From a virus: DNA of 64,000 nucleotides. The translations under genes and the position numbers were made by a program. Under the pieces are notes generated by a model. That model was given only the letters and a program-made list of their open reading frames with translations. It did no database searches and was not told the DNA's origin. The stretch lies in IMG/VR virus record IMGVR_UViG_3300028393_001967; one strand, 5' to 3'. The stretch's first letter is position 1. The number at the start of each line of letters is the position of its first letter. Positions 27,079 through 56,368 of this stretch are shown piece after piece.

Positions 27079-27220
27079 TTGACAACTGTACAGCACTCAT
27101 ATACAATAGAGACTTGTTAGTTAGAAAACACCAGTTTTTAACCAGTGTTTAGAAAAAAGACTAAATAAATTGTCAAAAACATAAAAAGTGCTTGACAACA
27201 GGCATAAATAAATGTACAAT
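27079..27220 (+). promoter_or_regulatory. Tandem sigma70 promoters of the tRNA operon
   Basis: TTGACA-17-TACAAT at 27079 and 27192, each with an A-tract UP element; TAAATA boxes also present. Confidence 0.8.
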
Positions 27221-27274
27221 TAACACATACACTAGAAACAGTGTATAATTTTTAAAGAGAAAACGGAAACTAAA

Positions 27275-27418
27275 ATGCAATCGCAACAAAGACATTTACA
27301 ACTAGGGACAGCAAAACAGCTGGGCAATTGCCCCGCCGTATTGTGGTCTGCGTTTAATATGTCAAGTTATGATCGCACACCAGAGATTACGATCGGGGTC
27401 CGGGAGGACTTAATGTAA
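27275..27418 (+). CDS. Putative attenuator leader peptide (47 aa, all 20 amino acids)
   Basis: MQSQQRHLQLGTAKQLGNCPAVLWSAFNMSSYDRTPEITIGVREDLM; its 3' codons form the antiterminator strand. Confidence 0.65.
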   Translation: MQSQQRHLQLGTAKQLGNCPAVLWSAFNMSSYDRTPEITIGVREDLM

Positions 27419-27444
27419 ATGTAAGTTTACACTAACTCCACAGG

Positions 27445-27479
27445 ACCCCAGGATTAAGAACCCTGGGGTTTTTTGTTTT
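27445..27479 (+). terminator. Intrinsic terminator (attenuator) upstream of the tRNA cluster
   Basis: ACCCCAGG-loop-CCTGGGGT followed by TTTTTGTTTT. Confidence 0.85.
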
Positions 27480-27593
27480 AGCGTTGGTATAGTGTGAAGA
27501 ACAGGTAACGAGGACCTGGCCCCGCACTTAAAACATGGGGCAAACGGGCGGTGGCGAGGATGGCTTATCTTCTTGTAGATAAAAAAATTCGTC

Positions 27594-27721
27594 ATATTAA
27601 AGCAAATTGTTGCACGGGCATCCCTTTGACGGGTGTTGTCGAAGCATAGCTAAACAGTTTGTTTTAATATACACATTGAGCTGACAGGGGCTGTGATGCC
27701 GCAGACAGTGTGTTTAATTAA
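27594..27721 (+). repeat. Two overlapping conserved-stem hairpin elements (family members A and B)
   Basis: ATATTAAAGCAAATTGTT...AACAGTTTGTTTTAATAT and ATACACATTG...CAGTGTGT. Confidence 0.55.
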
Positions 27722-27729
27722 ATAAGTGT

Positions 27730-27945
27730 ATGTCTAATAAACAAAAAGAATATGCTGGTAGGCTATTAAAAATAGCATCCCAGCAGGCACATCACAAACT
27801 ACCCAATGGTTCAAAAGAAGAACTATTGATTTATCAACTGGGTTTTGTTGTTGGAATTTTGTCTAGATATGCACCCAATGATATTACCATTCATCAAGAC
27901 ATTAAAATTCTTGAAGAATATTTAGGTATCAATATTAAAGAATAA
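27730..27945 (+). CDS. Hypothetical late protein
   Basis: TAAATA upstream; 71-aa ORF. Confidence 0.6.
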   Translation: MSNKQKEYAGRLLKIASQQAHHKLPNGSKEELLIYQLGFVVGILSRYAPNDITIHQDIKILEEYLGINIKE

Positions 27946-27947
27946 TT

Positions 27948-28036
27948 GGAGTGTGTTCCCTGTTGCCGGCTGTAACCCGGTAGCCTTTATTAAGCAGGGT
28001 GGCTGGCAAGTGGTTCGATTCCATCACGCTTCACCA
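27948..28036 (+). ncRNA. tRNA-like RNA with Tyr(GUA) anticodon arm but no D-arm
   Basis: 8-bp acceptor GGAGTGTG/CACGCTTC, ACCA end, T-loop TTCGATT, arm GCCGG-CTGTAAC-CCGGT. Confidence 0.7.
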
Positions 28037-30891: not shown

Positions 30892-30920
30892 TTGACAACT
30901 GACCATGATAGTTGTATAAT
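30892..30920 (+). promoter_or_regulatory. Sigma70 promoter of the tRNA-Lys unit
   Basis: TTGACA-17-TATAAT. Confidence 0.85.
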
Positions 30921-41032: not shown

Positions 41033-41926
41033 TAAGGGTAGTTTAATATCCTGTAGGCGGTTCGCCGTCGACGAAGAATAACTGTGGTGACACAGCCAAA
41101 GGAGGTATGCCTACATAACTCCGCTAGTAATAGTTCGTTTAGACAAGCCTGCTCACTGTCGCGAGACAGCGATCACTGATAAGACCGGTGGTTGTAACAA
41201 TGACGCTGGATGTTGTGGAAAGAACCTTTGCTTACAAGCCCGCAAGGGGAACTTGAGTAGATGGAAAGTAACAGGTGGTGCTGACTTCACAACTAAACCA
41301 GTCCAGTTAATTAGTATGAGAAAGGGTAGTGTATTTGTCCGAAGGGTTGCACCTAAGGGCTTGTATGCAGTTTGAGTGGTTAGTGGAGGCTGTCAGCAAT
41401 GGCGGGGTCGACACAGATCGCAAAAGACGACTGAGTAGTTCGCAAGACAAAAGGTACGTGGTGTGTTGTATTATGTAGTCCAAAAGATTATGTAGCAACT
41501 GAGTCAGCACATCGCAGTAGGTTTACAGTAGCACAATGGTAGTGCAATTCCCTTTTAAGGAATAGGCTGTTGGTTCAAATCCAACCTTATATAAAATGCA
41601 AAGACTGACTCGGTCGTATGTGAAAGACATCTAATACTTGGCTCGTAAGAGAACTAAGTCTAATTAAACTCGCAAGGTGAGATTAGTTTATACAGGATGT
41701 TTCGTAAGGTGTTAGCGCACTTGAATGGCTCGCAAGGTCAACGGAATGGAAAGTGTAGAATAGCATACGGCGACGTGACTACTGCCTGTCACTAAAAACG
41801 GCGATGTTGACAACAGACTAGGATACCTAGCAATAGGGCTTAGTGGAAGTCGGAAGAAAGTAGACTCGCAAGGTTTACAATAATGTCCGAGGTGTTGTTC
41901 GGTAAGGATGTATTCTCAGTCCTCCA
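41033..41926 (+). ncRNA. Giant (~900-nt) structured ncRNA, GOLLD-like, with embedded tRNA-Lys-like domain
   Basis: No + strand ORF; raised GC; many GNRA tetraloop hairpins (CGCAAG x5, GCGAGA, TAGCAATA); tRNA-cluster context. Confidence 0.7.
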
Positions 41927-43756: not shown

Positions 43757-43785
43757 TTGACATAGATATTAAATAAATATATACT
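43757..43785 (+). promoter_or_regulatory. Sigma70 promoter of the tmRNA (with embedded TAAATA)
   Basis: TTGACA-17-TATACT. Confidence 0.8.
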
Positions 43786-43791
43786 GTAAGT

Positions 43792-44262
43792 TAAGACTGT
43801 ATGAAGTCGATTGAAAAGGATTCTGGACGCGGGTTCGACTCCCGCCAGGTCCACCATAAGGAAGTTTGATGATTTTACAAGATTTAGAATATATTTTCAA
43901 GCCGCAAGTTGACGAAGGTACAACCAAGTTGTACTTTATGTTGATAGATGGTGAGCATACGATGATGGAACGACACAATGCTAGTGATATTGAATCATTA
44001 GTTCCAATGTTAGATTCATTTCAATATGCTGGTACAGAAATTCGTATTCCTCGTTTTATAAAGTAAGTTTTCTTATGATGGGCCTGCCATGGTTTCGACA
44101 GGGTCAAGAGTAATGAAATGGACAGTCCGGCAATGTAGAAGCCGTTAGGGTTGGGGTTTCCCGGCCGAAGACACAAAACCTATAAATGCAAACGATTCAG
44201 TTTACGCATTGGCCGCCTAAACGCAGCCTGGGGTAAGACATACCTCGCAACAGAAACTCAAA
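43792..44262 (+). ncRNA. ssrA: Circularly permuted (two-piece) tmRNA, tag (A)ANDSVYALAA
   Basis: Acceptor piece ends ...GGTTCGACTCCCGCCAGGTCCACCA (43856); coding piece starts GGGCCTG (44080; G3:U70); tag at 44188-44220. Confidence 0.92.
43869..44066 (+). CDS. Small acidic protein encoded inside the tmRNA intervening segment
   Basis: AAGGAAG RBS; 65-codon ORF filling the spacer. Confidence 0.6.
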   Translation: MILQDLEYIFKPQVDEGTTKLYFMLIDGEHTMMERHNASDIESLVPMLDSFQYAGTEIRIPRFIK

Positions 44263-44263
44263 G

Positions 44264-44287
44264 TAGGCTCTCCGGAGCCTATTTTTA
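44264..44287 (+). terminator. Intrinsic terminator after ssrA
   Basis: TAGGCTC-TCCG-GAGCCTA-TTTTT. Confidence 0.85.
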
Positions 44288-44386
44288 TGACTATAGAAGT
44301 CATAGGAATTTTCAATTGAAAAATGCTATTTTTAGGTTGATTCCTATAGTAAATAAAAGTACAATATTATTTTACAAGGAGACTGT

Positions 44387-45069: not shown

Positions 45070-46089
45070 ATGTCTAAACAATATGATACCCTTGTCCTAA
45101 TCGGACGTTTTCAACCGTTTCACACAGCACATTTGATGCTGGCACATAGAGCCACTGCTAAATGTAAACAATTGATCTTTATTTGCGGCAGCGCTAATCA
45201 GCCACGCACTTACAAGAATCCCTTTACCTTTCACGAACGTAGCGTAATGATCAAGTACGCAACTAGTGGACTTGACTTGCAGGTTCAAGTTGAACCCAAT
45301 CCAGATACAATTTACAATGACCAAGCGTGGGCAGTTCGTGTTCAAGCATTGGTTGCTAAACATACCAAACCGGGTGATAACATTGGTATTATTGGGCACA
45401 AGAAAGATCCAAGTTCGTTTTACTTAGATATGTTCCCGCAATGGGGTTTTGAAGAAGTAGAACTGCTTGAACCACTTGATGCTACTGACATTCGCGAGTT
45501 GTATTTCAAACGTGATGTCAATATGAACTTTATTAAGAATGTTGTACCGCCGAGTACTTTTGATTTCTTAATGGCGTTTTCACTTACCGCAGAGTACGAA
45601 CAAGTGATCCGTGAACGTGAATTCATTATTGAACACAAAAAGCAATATGCTGGATTGAAGTATCCTCCAATCTTTAGTACTGCCGACGCTGTGGTCATTT
45701 GCAGTGGTCACGTACTAATGATCAAACGCCGTGCTGAACCAGGTCGCGGCCTTTGGGCACTGCCTGGCGGTTATGTCAATGCTAATACAGACAAAAGTGT
45801 TGAGGCCGCTATGTTGCGTGAACTACGTGAAGAAACACAGATCAAGGTTCCTGCTCCAGTACTTAAAGGTAGTATTGTTCGTAGCAGAGTATTTGATGCA
45901 ATTGACCGTAGTCCACGAGGTCGTATAATTACACACGCTTTCCACATTGTTCTACCTGATGGCGAACTTCCAAAAGTCAAAGGTAGTGATGATGCAGAAA
46001 AGGCTAGATGGGTGCCTATTGCAGAGGTCCGGTCGGATCAATGCTTTGAAGACCATTACGAAATCCTACAGCATTTTGTAGGTGCATAA
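45070..46089 (+). CDS. nadM: Bifunctional NMN adenylyltransferase / Nudix ADP-ribose hydrolase
   Basis: GRFQPFHTAH; KNPFT; Nudix box GG...AMLRELREET; GSDDA. Confidence 0.93.
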   Translation: MSKQYDTLVLIGRFQPFHTAHLMLAHRATAKCKQLIFICGSANQPRTYKNPFTFHERSVMIKYATSGLDLQVQVEPNPDTIYNDQAWAVRVQALVAKHTKPGDNIGIIGHKKDPSSFYLDMFPQWGFEEVELLEPLDATDIRELYFKRDVNMNFIKNVVPPSTFDFLMAFSLTAEYEQVIREREFIIEHKKQYAGLKYPPIFSTADAVVICSGHVLMIKRRAEPGRGLWALPGGYVNANTDKSVEAAMLRELREETQIKVPAPVLKGSIVRSRVFDAIDRSPRGRIITHAFHIVLPDGELPKVKGSDDAEKARWVPIAEVRSDQCFEDHYEILQHFVGA

Positions 46090-46130
46090 GCGATAGACGC
46101 GAATGCTTTTAACTTTAAAGGAACTTTAAA

Positions 46131-47525
46131 ATGAAATTATCTAAAAATCTTATCCTGAACACAGACAGTTATAAAGTGTCAATGTTCAAACAATACCCAC
46201 TAGGAACCACCAATGTATATTCGTACATTGAGTCACGAGGCGGCCGTTATGATAGAACTGTATTCTTCGGACTACAGGCTTTTATCAAGGAATACCTACT
46301 CAGCCCAATTACCCAGGCTGACATCGACATCGCTGACGAAATCCTCACCGCTCACGGCGAGCCCTTTAACAGGGAAGGATGGGAGTACATTCTTACCGCT
46401 CACAACGGATATTTGCCAGTTGTTATCAGAGCGGTACCCGAAGGCACTGTTGTTCCAGTCTCAAACGTACTTGCGACAATTGAAAACACCGATCCTAAAT
46501 GTTTCTGGTTGACTACTTGGTTGGAAACTGCTTTGCTTCGTGCTATTTGGTACGGTACTACTGTGTCAACGCAAAGTAAGTACATCAAAAACATTATTAC
46601 AGACTATTTGGAGAAATCTGGTGATCCTACATCTATTAGTTTTAAGCTCCATGATTTTGGTGCTCGTGGCGTTAGCAGCATGGAATCCGCTGGCATCGGC
46701 GGAGCCGCCCACCTTGTCAACTTCATGGGCACTGATACTATCACTGGCATTTTGTATGCTCGTGAGTATTACGGCGCTGAAATCGCTGGATTTAGTATCC
46801 CTGCCGCAGAGCACAGCACTGTCACAAGTTGGGGTCGTCCAGACGAAGTAAAAGCCTATAGCAATATGGTTCAACAATTTGGCAAGCCTGGTGCATTGTT
46901 GGCAGTGGTGTCGGACAGTTACGACATTTACCAAGCCTGCCGCTTGTGGGGCACTGAGTTGAAACAACAGGTAATTGACAGCGGTGCTACTGTCGTTATT
47001 CGTCCTGACAGTGGCGATCCTGTTGAAGTACTGCCAAAGATGTTTCAAATCCTAGGCGAAACATTTGGATATACCACAAACGCCAAAGGCTACAAAGTAC
47101 TGAACAATGTTCGTGTACTTTGGGGTGACGGTATCAACCAGTTGAGCATTCGCAGTATTCTTACAAAGATTGTTGACTTTGGTGGCTGGAGTGCAGACAA
47201 CATTGCTTTTGGTATGGGTGGTGCATTGCTACAGCAATTGGATCGTGATACACAAAAGTTTGCGATGAAATGTAGCGCGGCACTGATTAAAGGTGAATGG
47301 GTTGATGTGTTCAAAGACCCCGTTACTGACAAGGTCAAAGCGTCCAAGAAAGGTCGTGTAACTTTGTGGACCAGCGGTGGTGAATTCCAAACCAGTGTTG
47401 AACAACCAAAAGGTTGGACAGATCGGGGCACTGTATGGACTGAAGCATTGGGAGAAGTTTACCGTGATGGTCGACTGATCAAAGAAATTACCTTTGACGA
47501 AGTTCGAGCAAATAGTATGAAGTAA
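46131..47525 (+). CDS. nadV: Nicotinamide phosphoribosyltransferase
   Basis: TDSYK, LHDFGARG, PAAEHS, VSDSYD, IRPDSGDP and FGMGG. Confidence 0.95.
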   Translation: MKLSKNLILNTDSYKVSMFKQYPLGTTNVYSYIESRGGRYDRTVFFGLQAFIKEYLLSPITQADIDIADEILTAHGEPFNREGWEYILTAHNGYLPVVIRAVPEGTVVPVSNVLATIENTDPKCFWLTTWLETALLRAIWYGTTVSTQSKYIKNIITDYLEKSGDPTSISFKLHDFGARGVSSMESAGIGGAAHLVNFMGTDTITGILYAREYYGAEIAGFSIPAAEHSTVTSWGRPDEVKAYSNMVQQFGKPGALLAVVSDSYDIYQACRLWGTELKQQVIDSGATVVIRPDSGDPVEVLPKMFQILGETFGYTTNAKGYKVLNNVRVLWGDGINQLSIRSILTKIVDFGGWSADNIAFGMGGALLQQLDRDTQKFAMKCSAALIKGEWVDVFKDPVTDKVKASKKGRVTLWTSGGEFQTSVEQPKGWTDRGTVWTEALGEVYRDGRLIKEITFDEVRANSMK

Positions 47526-55348: not shown

Positions 55349-56368
55349 ATGACTCGTAAAATGGCAACTATCCGTAAGATTGATGCACTGCGTCCTATTG
55401 AAGGCGCTGATGCAATTGAATGCGCTATCGTAGGTGGATGGACCTGCGTGGTAAAGAAGGGTGAATACACTGCTGGTGATCTGGCTGTGTACTGCGAAAT
55501 TGATTCTTGGATTCCACATAACATTGCACCATTTCTATCAAAAGGAAACTTTCCACGTGTTTTCAATGAAGTCAAGGGTGAACGTCTGCGTACTGTAAAG
55601 TTGCGTGGTCAACTGTCACAGGGCCTTCTATTGGACCGATACACTGTTCTAGACAAGGTTGGTGAGATTTACGAAGGTATGGATGTTTCTGAACTGCTTG
55701 GCATCACCAAGTATGAAGCACCCATCCCCGCAGAACTTGCAGGTGAAGTCAAAGGTATGTTCCCTTCAGTGATTCCGAAGACTGACCAAGAGCGTATTCA
55801 AAACTTGTCAGCAGAGTTGGCGGAGTGGAAGACTGAAAATCTATCTTGGGAAATTACAGAGAAACTCGATGGGTCTTCAATGACTGTTTATGTTATTGAT
55901 GGTGAAGTTGGTGTTTGCTCACGCAACCTTGACCTCAAGCGTAATGTTGATAATTCATTGTGGCGTGCCGCTATCCGGCACGACTTAGAAGAAAAGTTGA
56001 AGATTGCAGGTGGTAACATTGCAGTCCAAGGTGAACTGATTGGAAACGGCATTCAAGGTAACAAGTACCAAATGCGTGATCAAGACTTTTATGTTTACGA
56101 CATTTATGACATTGATGCAGGTCGTTACTACACTCCTGCTGAACGAGTGGCGTTTGTAACTGAACACAAGTTGAATCACTGCCCTATTTTGATCTCTAAT
56201 GATCGTTTGGGCGGCGGCGAAACTATTGAAAATCTGTTGAAGTACGCTGAAGGTAATTCAGAATTGAATCCCAAGCAAGAGCGTGAAGGACTGGTGTTCA
56301 AGTGTAACGAAAAGTCTGTGAGCTTCAAGGCAATTTCTAACAAATTTTTATTAAAGAGTGGTGAATAA
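55349..56368 (+). CDS. RNA ligase, DRB0094/Rnl2-like family
   Basis: PIEGADAIE, KLRGQLSQGL, PKTDQERIQN, EKLDGSS, QGEL, EGLVFK and FKAISN. Confidence 0.9.
   Translation: MTRKMATIRKIDALRPIEGADAIECAIVGGWTCVVKKGEYTAGDLAVYCEIDSWIPHNIAPFLSKGNFPRVFNEVKGERLRTVKLRGQLSQGLLLDRYTVLDKVGEIYEGMDVSELLGITKYEAPIPAELAGEVKGMFPSVIPKTDQERIQNLSAELAEWKTENLSWEITEKLDGSSMTVYVIDGEVGVCSRNLDLKRNVDNSLWRAAIRHDLEEKLKIAGGNIAVQGELIGNGIQGNKYQMRDQDFYVYDIYDIDAGRYYTPAERVAFVTEHKLNHCPILISNDRLGGGETIENLLKYAEGNSELNPKQEREGLVFKCNEKSVSFKAISNKFLLKSGE

Follow-up and report, generated by a model that had tools for sequence, protein, structure and literature searches.

A predicted ribosome-operated attenuator with an all-amino-acid leader at the head of tRNA gene arrays in uncultured phages

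How could a phage that carries a large array of tRNA genes adjust their transcription to need? Phage tRNA genes are usually viewed as constitutive cargo, which corrects a mismatch in codon usage or replaces tRNAs lost to host defence. The question is raised by a locus in IMG/VR virus record IMGVR_UViG_3300028393_001967, from which a stretch of 64,000 nucleotides (hereafter the window) was analysed. The source of the window looks like an uncultured freshwater giant phage. Its 43 same-strand tRNA genes and a transfer-messenger RNA (tmRNA) gene lie 3' of a short element (27192-27479), in which a promoter is followed by an open reading frame (ORF) of 47 codons and by an intrinsic terminator. A preliminary description of this DNA had proposed that the element is a leader-peptide attenuator sampling almost every codon. 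Our comparative analysis led us to a related reading that we consider probable: the element would be a ribosome-operated attenuator, whose leader is kept complete in amino acids so that slow decoding of any one of them raises transcription of the tRNA genes. The comparison of related sequences supports both halves of this reading, the structure and the content. The features on which the argument is built are the following.

27192..27220, + strand, conserved sigma-70 leader promoter, TTGACA-N17-TACAAT, score 11/12
27275..27418, + strand, leader ORF (ORF A), 47 codons with all 20 amino acids, stop codon TAA at 27416-27418, kept in every homologue
27344..27382, + strand, candidate hairpin within the ORF (P0), Trp codon UGGUCUGCG with CGCACACCA (Arg-Thr-Pro codons), a possible RNA-polymerase pause hairpin
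27395..27449, + strand, antiterminator hairpin with stems P1, P2 and P3, stop codon at the top of P3
27445..27479, + strand, intrinsic terminator, ACCCCAGG (27445-27452) / CCTGGGGT (27462-27469) with a 9-nt loop, then TTTTTGTTTT; 8-bp G+C-rich stem and T-run

The layout has many relatives. A pattern of the three-arm structure, scanned over IMG/VR, was found in at least 119 viral contigs, and a scan for the DRTPE codons, which is independent of the stems, gave about 45 further loci with variant stems once the chance matches, about half of its total, had been discarded. More than 140 IMG/VR loci have ORF, antiterminator and terminator at the head of a tRNA array on the same strand; wherever enough downstream sequence was available, such an array began 190-990 nt behind the element, and tRNA genes upstream of it were usually absent. 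When 1.84 billion representative proteins were searched with a profile, members fell into 170 clusters at 50% identity. By contrast, neither DNA comparison nor tblastn with ORF A or with a 71-aa ORF of the window (see below) revealed a relative in the 50,697 deposited phage genomes, and a neighbouring GT11 gene had none but distant matches. The pattern occurred once in the genomes of 185,579 bacterial and archaeal species, on a 6.2-kb contig (JBBAKF010000113.1; L237) of a Polynucleobacter metagenome-assembled genome (MAG), where a typical family member is followed by the block 1 RNA described below. This contig may be a weak hint of the host at most, or a binning artefact.

The preliminary description had stated that the end of the ORF is complementary to a segment overlapping the left arm of the terminator, and that antiterminator and terminator exclude each other. 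The pairs, like the other features it had listed, were found where it had placed them. The last 22 nt of the leader ORF form the 5' strand of the long hairpin 27395-27449, in which P1 pairs GGGGTCC (27395-27401; arm 1) with GGACCCC (27443-27449), P2 pairs GGAG (27403-27406) with CTCC (27436-27439), and the apical stem P3 pairs 27414-27420 with 27425-27431. The nucleotides ACCCC (27445-27449) are common to this hairpin and to the terminator, and the minimum-energy fold of the region chose the long hairpin over the terminator. The terminator itself was missed by a simple terminator scan because its loop is 9 nt.

Pair types in the helices were counted over 110 distinct elements. The outermost pair of the hairpin (alignment columns 55-140) is GC in 79, AU in 26 and GU in three of them, while in the terminator the shared base (column 140) forms CG in 81, UG in 19 and UA in 10. 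The shared base covaries with both of its partners, and the two helices are mutually exclusive. When C is replaced by U in the shared arm, wobble pairing preserves both helices, and a change in either partner later fixes the replacement. Single loci vary in other ways that are likewise compensated: L170 carries an inserted, compensated pair (AGGGTTCC/GGAACCCT), the terminator arms of L227 (ACCCTAGAA/TTCTAGGGT) have GG/CC changed to AA/TT, and in L193 both terminator arms are shortened. A conserved layout with compensatory pairs in related phages, which the preliminary description had named as a check, was obtained, insertions included.

P1 and P2 (GGGGUCC..GGAG / CUYC..GGACCCC) are nearly invariant in the family. 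The interior of the hairpin is free in sequence, yet it always holds the GGAG/CUYC stem and an apical stem (mean z -3.46, with 91% below -2). The family mean free energy is -23.9 kcal/mol for the hairpin and -13.7 kcal/mol for the terminator, and the antiterminator, being the more stable of the two, should win if nothing interferes. When the whole leader was submitted to RNAalifold, the terminator alone was recovered, owing to the poor alignment of the hairpin region. Searches against Rfam, T-box models included, gave no match at the gathering score, and 27395-27479 had chance-level matches only (E = 0.37-1.7).

What could interfere is a ribosome, and the position of the stop codon is consistent with this. 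In all related loci the leader ORF has about 42-53 codons and always enters the hairpin, and its ATG column is invariant across 83 aligned relatives. In 102 of the 113 unique leaders, 21-25 nt separate the first base of arm 1 from the stop codon, which is mostly UAA and sits on top of the apical stem. From the known size of ribosome footprints, a ribosome on the leader stop would cover arm 1; it should at the same time spare the shared arm, which starts about 27 nt further on. This placement is the geometry required by an attenuator, and it is kept in either reading frame: the nucleotides of GGGGTCC are invariant and are read as Gly-Ser in most members and as Gly-Val in others, and in the window leader a +1/-1 indel pair spans GGGGTCC with the stop position retained. 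Constraint on the protein is weak: the ratio of nonsynonymous to synonymous substitution rates (dN/dS) of the leader is about 0.7, and its synonymous sites are also constrained in conserved blocks.

The content of the leader provides the other half of the evidence. All 20 amino acids are present in 101 of the 113 unique leaders (mean about 46 codons) and at least 19 in 111, while all 23 codon boxes, counting both boxes of Leu, Ser and Arg, are covered in 78. The representatives from the profile search, an independent set with no more than 50% identity, behaved similarly: 106 of 146 (73%) have all 20, and 96% have at least 19. When residues were permuted within alignment columns, by which positional conservation is retained, 20% ± 3.4% of the leaders were complete (maximum 30% in 1000 trials) versus 89% observed. 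Completeness exceeds that of the column shuffle because single residues shift from column to column but are rarely lost. Cys, for example, is single-copy in 93 of the 113 leaders and yet spread over at least 10 alignment columns; His and Tyr behave like Cys, their positions shifting and the residues seldom disappearing. In 94 of the 113 leaders all 20 amino acids have already occurred upstream of arm 1, the last to appear usually being a conserved Glu. By comparison, segments of the phage's own genes contained 16.7 ± 1.7 amino acid types, 2.5% of them reaching 20, and stop-free shuffles of the window ORF contained 17.5 ± 1.2. ORF B, a conserved small ORF behind the terminator of most relatives that served as a control, averages 16.6 types though it is longer. 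Complete content is therefore kept as a property of the family, beyond chance.

Codons as such told less than amino acids. The 47-codon ORF with all 20 amino acids and 37 different codons, as first described, was recounted with the same result. Thirty-seven distinct codons are extreme against segments of the phage's own genes (28.2 ± 2.7; none of 5000 reached 37) but marginal against stop-free shuffles of the ORF (32.9 ± 2.3; P = 0.06), and codon diversity was modestly above such shuffles (z ~1.3). As codon diversity exceeds the shuffles only modestly, we dropped the term 'pan-codon' for 'pan-amino-acid/box', and completeness of amino acids fits the data better. The suggestion that the leader uses codons scarce in this genome was borne out for TCG, GGG, GCG, ACG and CGG (relative synonymous codon usage, RSCU, 0.22-0.30), with CCC at 0.61, but not for AGA (1.31) and CTA (0.96). 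Enrichment of rare codons upstream of arm 1 was mild (mean ln RSCU -0.01, versus 0.06 in ORF B and 0.14 in gene segments).

A model of the switch can be formulated from these observations. A host-type early promoter would drive a leader of about 47 codons, whose end supplies the 5' strand of a hairpin; the 3' arm of this hairpin doubles as the 5' arm of the terminator. A ribosome moving in step with RNA polymerase would reach the stop codon and hold the 5' strand of the hairpin, upon which the shared arm would pair downstream and transcription would terminate. When the ribosome is stalled early, or was never loaded, the antiterminator would form first and polymerase would read through to ORF B (in relatives), block 1 and the tRNAs, so that the switch would gate the conserved downstream RNA and the first tRNA block. 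Because selection maintains a codon or more for every amino acid ahead of the hairpin, mostly with both boxes of Leu, Ser and Arg, a shortage of any charged tRNA should raise tRNA synthesis, which would provide a supply-and-demand feedback on the near-complete tRNA set of the phage. The hairpin P0 (about 41 nt, from the Trp to the Pro codon) excludes arm 1; in per-sequence folds its mean z was -2.31 and UGG-CCA was paired in 85%, and it might serve as a pause hairpin, by analogy with the trp leader. In this model it is inferred that the leader is translated, that ribosome and polymerase are coupled and that polymerase pauses at the Trp-to-Pro hairpin, as are the direction in which the switch responds and its physiological trigger.

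The leader may also be regarded as a 'pangram', a probe of the whole aminoacyl-tRNA pool, by which a limiting tRNA would lead the phage to transcribe its own near-complete set. To this wider proposal we incline slightly. A tRNA might become limiting through the codon demand of an AT-rich phage, through shut-off of host tRNAs or through defence nucleases that cleave tRNA. On the pangram view, relatives with a split array would split the probe as well, as seems to be the case in L119. The array of L119 is split, and two attenuators are present, L119:4700-5010 (+) and L119:8168-8365 (+). One of them has a separate hairpin and terminator and a leader of 25 codons (MFDAMILSLSILAYLEEDWSRGLCG), in which Leu, Glu, Asp and Tyr occur; the tRNAs behind it are Leu, Leu, Glu, Tyr, Asp and Met. 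The other, ahead of the next block, has a family-type leader from which exactly Glu and Tyr are missing. This suggests that the split leaders track their tRNA blocks in the direction predicted by the model, in a single lineage.

What read-through transcription would reach depends on the region downstream of the terminator, which contains the following features in the window.

27490..27610, + strand, conserved structured RNA 'block 1' (about 125 nt), first conserved element of the read-through transcript
27730..27945, + strand, 71-aa ORF; most relatives have nothing at this place
27947..28033, + strand, D-armless tRNA-Tyr(GUA)-like gene; acceptor, anticodon and T arms present, variable region long; Rfam tRNA-Sec model 23.9 bits
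28043..30835, + strand, first tRNA block, 21 tRNAs, from tRNA calls

Block 1 is present in at least 51 loci and in relatives stands after ORF B or directly after the terminator. It folds into two hairpins with conserved loops AACGAGG and GCACUUAAAACA, supported by 7-15 double compensatory changes per pair, and continues with an invariant AAACGGGCGG and a long-range helix that, judged by eye, seems to covary and lies outside the computed consensus structure. No Rfam match to block 1 was obtained, and no relatives of the 71-aa ORF were found. ORF B (50-62 aa, ..HTLTxEQxKKLIQDKFERARxY..) starts in most relatives about 22 nt after the terminator stem, for example L002:2979-3128 (-) and L072:5252-5422 (+), but the window and L006 do not have it; apart from weak PHROG matches of unknown function, it belongs to no family. 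Since its ribosome-binding site lies in the tail of the T-run and this close spacing leaves no room for a promoter, ORF B is transcribable only through the terminator.

The tRNA-Tyr-like gene, which ARAGORN missed, is the true start of the array; a canonical tRNA-Tyr follows it at a distance of 90 nt, and about 37 related loci have the gene conserved. Downstream arrays that could be fetched encode tRNAs for 18-20 amino acids, and their apparent gaps for Tyr probably arise because ARAGORN omits this gene. The preliminary description had placed about 40 tRNAs behind the terminator: 43 are indeed encoded on the same strand, but the first called tRNA begins 574 nt after the hairpin and the other elements listed above lie between. 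No promoter scoring at least 10/12 was found between the terminator and the first tRNA in 60 of 99 loci, the window included; in the window the next promoter with 12/12 is at 30892. On account of the promoters further down, the switch could gate at most block 1, the 71-aa ORF, the tRNA-Tyr-like gene and about 21 tRNAs.

Sequences from RNA libraries cross the terminator. From a lake metatranscriptome comes a 355-nt contig that matches 27156-27510 without a difference and extends 31 nt past the terminator; in relatives, RNA-library contigs begin at the hairpin, cross the terminator and reach ORF B. Parts of the window that these contigs leave uncovered, and differences in depth between bins, were given no weight.

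Several observations weigh against the attenuator reading. A consensus promoter ends 9-40 nt before the first tRNA in 31 of 108 loci, and later tRNA sub-clusters of the window have promoters of 11-12/12 at 30892, 33320 and 33483; much of the tRNA transcription may for this reason bypass the switch. Transcription of the tRNAs mainly from promoters downstream of the terminator, by which the preliminary description would have considered itself refuted, is thereby indicated for part of the family and for the sub-clusters of the window, not for the first block here. The RNA-library contigs are of low depth, cannot show 3' ends and could include DNA carry-over. In a tree of the upstream part of the leader the hairpin states interleave, with a minimum of 12-13 changes, and only four comparisons fall on well-supported branches (three concordant, none opposed, not significant in a test that is underpowered); the number of independent G-C to A-U events is thus uncertain, and exchange of modules could mimic independence. 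Codon-position entropy of the leader has no 3-periodicity, which is why we argue for coding from maintenance of the frame and not from the substitution pattern. The leader has fixed codons, W...(N/Y)DRTPE and AKQxG, for which a sensor of any codon has no need, and the internal hairpin accounts for them in part; covariation in P0 is weak, with 72.5% of cells paired. Finally, the conserved Glu codon stands only 9-12 nt ahead of arm 1, a distance at which a stall on it might mask arm 1.

Some of these points are shared by other explanations. The fixed W, D, R, T, P and E, which stay in place while other residues shift, could indicate a nascent-peptide arrest sensor of the TnaC, SpeFL or SecM kind, in which W...DRTPE stalls the ribosome on a small molecule or a translation state and completeness is secondary; the motif ends 9-25 nt ahead of arm 1, and arrest there would leave arm 1 wholly or partly free. 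The same codons, however, are conserved synonymously and fold into the UGG-CCA hairpin, which points to a constraint at the RNA level. No credible match of ORF A to known arrest peptides was found, one member hitting SpeFL at the noise level (E = 0.15), and neither completeness nor the wandering single Cys and His codons would be explained, and we regard arrest as very unlikely. Fixed peptide positions (W, DRTPE) might also suggest a function of the product in a protein-dependent antiterminator of the BglG/RAT or LoaP kind, where a protein of phage or host, perhaps the product of ORF A or ORF B, binds P1/P2 and favours the hairpin over the terminator, and translation is incidental. P1 and P2 are near-invariant beside a variable apical stem, as a protein-binding site would look, and two conserved small ORFs flank the switch. 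But the hairpin, whose stability exceeds that of the terminator by about 10 kcal/mol, needs no stabiliser; ORF B is absent from the window and from other switch-bearing loci; and ORF A, with its dN/dS of about 0.7, matched no family: Pfam searches on 86 members gave nothing below E = 0.027, each family being matched by one member only, and no PHROG family was found. Since such a mechanism would leave unexplained both the end of the ORF inside the hairpin, at a fixed distance and in either frame, and the retention of all 20 amino acids, we consider it unlikely, though the strongest of the competing explanations.

It could also be asked whether ORF A is an ordinary gene for a small phage protein, with a promoter of its own and ahead of a leaky terminator, its hairpin stabilising or processing the 3' end of the mRNA and the tRNAs being transcribed by leak-through and from other promoters. 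This would agree with the conserved positions, with the helix-turn-helix-like stretch IAKQxGxxxSxW and with the promoter directly before the first tRNA in 31 of 108 loci, and a weak terminator predicts RNA contigs across it equally well. We nevertheless hold it to be the least probable explanation. A dN/dS of about 0.7 together with synonymous constraint is not what such a gene leads one to expect, and no Pfam or PHROG family, helix-turn-helix families included, was matched. A stabilising hairpin need not share an arm, or covary, with a terminator; completeness in 73-89% of the members would have no explanation; the element always heads a tRNA array; and ORF B follows directly after the T-run with no promoter of its own. 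Two smaller candidates were tried and rejected: a start-stop mini-ORF (GGAGG-N6-ATG-TAA), as the last codon in relatives is often GTA or another non-start codon, and a queuosine-related bias towards NAU codons, which is merely the default of an AT-rich genome.

A ribosome-operated attenuator would belong by mechanism to the class of classical leader-peptide attenuators; new here would be the all-amino-acid leader and the phage tRNA cargo. In the classical leaders (trpL, hisL, leuL, pheL, and the multivalent thrL and ilvL), codons for between one and three amino acids are repeated in runs, and the genes under control are those of the corresponding biosynthesis. In common with these enterobacterial systems, the phage element has a promoter-proximal short ORF, and one strand of its antiterminator also belongs to an intrinsic terminator; the position of the ribosome would pick the helix, efficient translation leading to termination and stalling to read-through, and a pause hairpin within the leader may be a further point of agreement. 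However, the phage leader has no runs but one to few codons for each of the 20 amino acids, its cargo is tRNA, and its stop codon lies inside the antiterminator. No anti-antiterminator of the 1:2 type that would engage arm 1 was found in the phage leader, and a ribosome-free leader should for that reason read through and not terminate. T-box riboswitches, which bind one uncharged tRNA directly and have no ORF, likewise turn tRNA charging into antitermination upstream of genes for the translation apparatus, but the phage element has neither specifier loop nor T-box sequence and had no Rfam match.

The closest functional analogue that we found is the upstream ORF (uORF) attenuator of whiB7 (wblC) in mycobacteria and other Actinobacteria, an antiterminator/terminator switch that responds to many kinds of amino-acid, tRNA and synthetase deficit, in genes related to 18 of 20 amino acids, and whose target is a transcription factor for drug resistance (PMC10274678). 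In M. smegmatis the whiB7 uORF contains all amino acids but Cys, and without its Trp or His codons the respective amino acid is no longer sensed; whiB7 uORFs vary in content, with an enrichment in Ala, and in M. tuberculosis several amino acids are missing (PMC10274678). The logic proposed for the phage leader is the same, in that the amino acids of the uORF decide which starvations are sensed. Unlike in whiB7, completeness of the phage leader is conserved (73-89% of diverged members), and no similarity in sequence or structure was detected between the two elements. In antibiotic-responsive attenuators such as the bmrB leader of bmrCD (PMC4191407), read-through is likewise reported to be set by the general translation state of a leader ORF and not by one amino acid. 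Such attenuators differ in that they sense drug-stalled ribosomes and control efflux or resistance genes, and they are not known to have amino-acid completeness or a tRNA cargo. Full-text literature searches brought up no account of phage tRNA genes under leader-peptide attenuation.

Upstream of the leader three more features were noted in the window.

27079..27107, + strand, sigma-70-like upstream promoter, TTGACA-N17-TACAAT, score 11/12, candidate
27220..27249, + strand, second promoter-like site, 11/12, overlapping the hairpin of the 5' untranslated region (5' UTR), window-specific
27227..27246, + strand, 5'-UTR stem-loop ATACACT / AGTGTAT, read from the sequence, with a presumed function only

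A promoter of 11-12/12 stands ahead of the leader ORF in 94 of 99 related loci, at the same position as 27192-27220, and TTGACA/TATAAT of the relatives aligns with it. The tandem sigma-70 promoters reported earlier are both present at 11/12, but the second (27220-27249) is not conserved in relatives. The lake RNA contig starts at 27156, downstream of the promoter-like site 27079-27107. In relatives, the place of the 5'-UTR stem-loop is taken by another inverted repeat, CAGCA..TGCTG. In a subset of relatives (e.g. L030, L076, L088, L094, L135 and L199) the -10 box TATAAT/TACAAT ends about 7-10 nt before the leader ATG, and the leader mRNA would be leaderless or nearly so, while other relatives have a 5' UTR of about 45 nt with a stem-loop.

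The remainder of the window is rich in RNA genes. It contains 44 tRNA genes, a permuted tmRNA and a GOLLD RNA; among its proteins are an RNA ligase, NAMPT, several glycosyltransferases and a DNA methyltransferase. The GOLLD RNA (41458-41922; Rfam RF02032, 201.8 bits, full length) lies inside the tRNA region and has a tRNA-Lys(TTT) embedded in it (41521-41593). The permuted two-piece tmRNA at the end of the tRNA region (43764-44311; ARAGORN; Rfam tmRNA_permuted, 119 bits) has the tag peptide ANDSVYALAA. A fusion of a CHASE2 sensor domain and an adenylate/guanylate cyclase domain is encoded by the phage at 16144-18255 (Pfam E = 1e-37 and 2e-19). NAD-salvage genes, namely those for a NadR-like cytidylyltransferase/NUDIX protein and a nicotinamide phosphoribosyltransferase, adjoin the tRNA region together with the RNA ligase (45070-47525 and 55349-56368). 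Sets of NAD-salvage and RNA ligase genes are often tied to repair of cleaved tRNA and to NAD-depleting defences.

If the attenuator reading is true, phage tRNA genes would be metered by demand, against the decoding of all 20 amino acids, and the element would be a virus-borne homeostat for translation capacity. It would represent a natural design for a general sensor of translation capacity, with multivalent attenuation pushed to its limit. The element could reveal whether anticodon nucleases, starvation or host shut-off drive the large tRNA arrays of phages, and, being only about 290 nt long and made of parts common to bacteria (sigma-70 promoter, intrinsic terminator), it is a potential reporter of aminoacyl-tRNA supply. 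The family would also illustrate clearly how selection can act on which amino acids a peptide contains rather than on its sequence.

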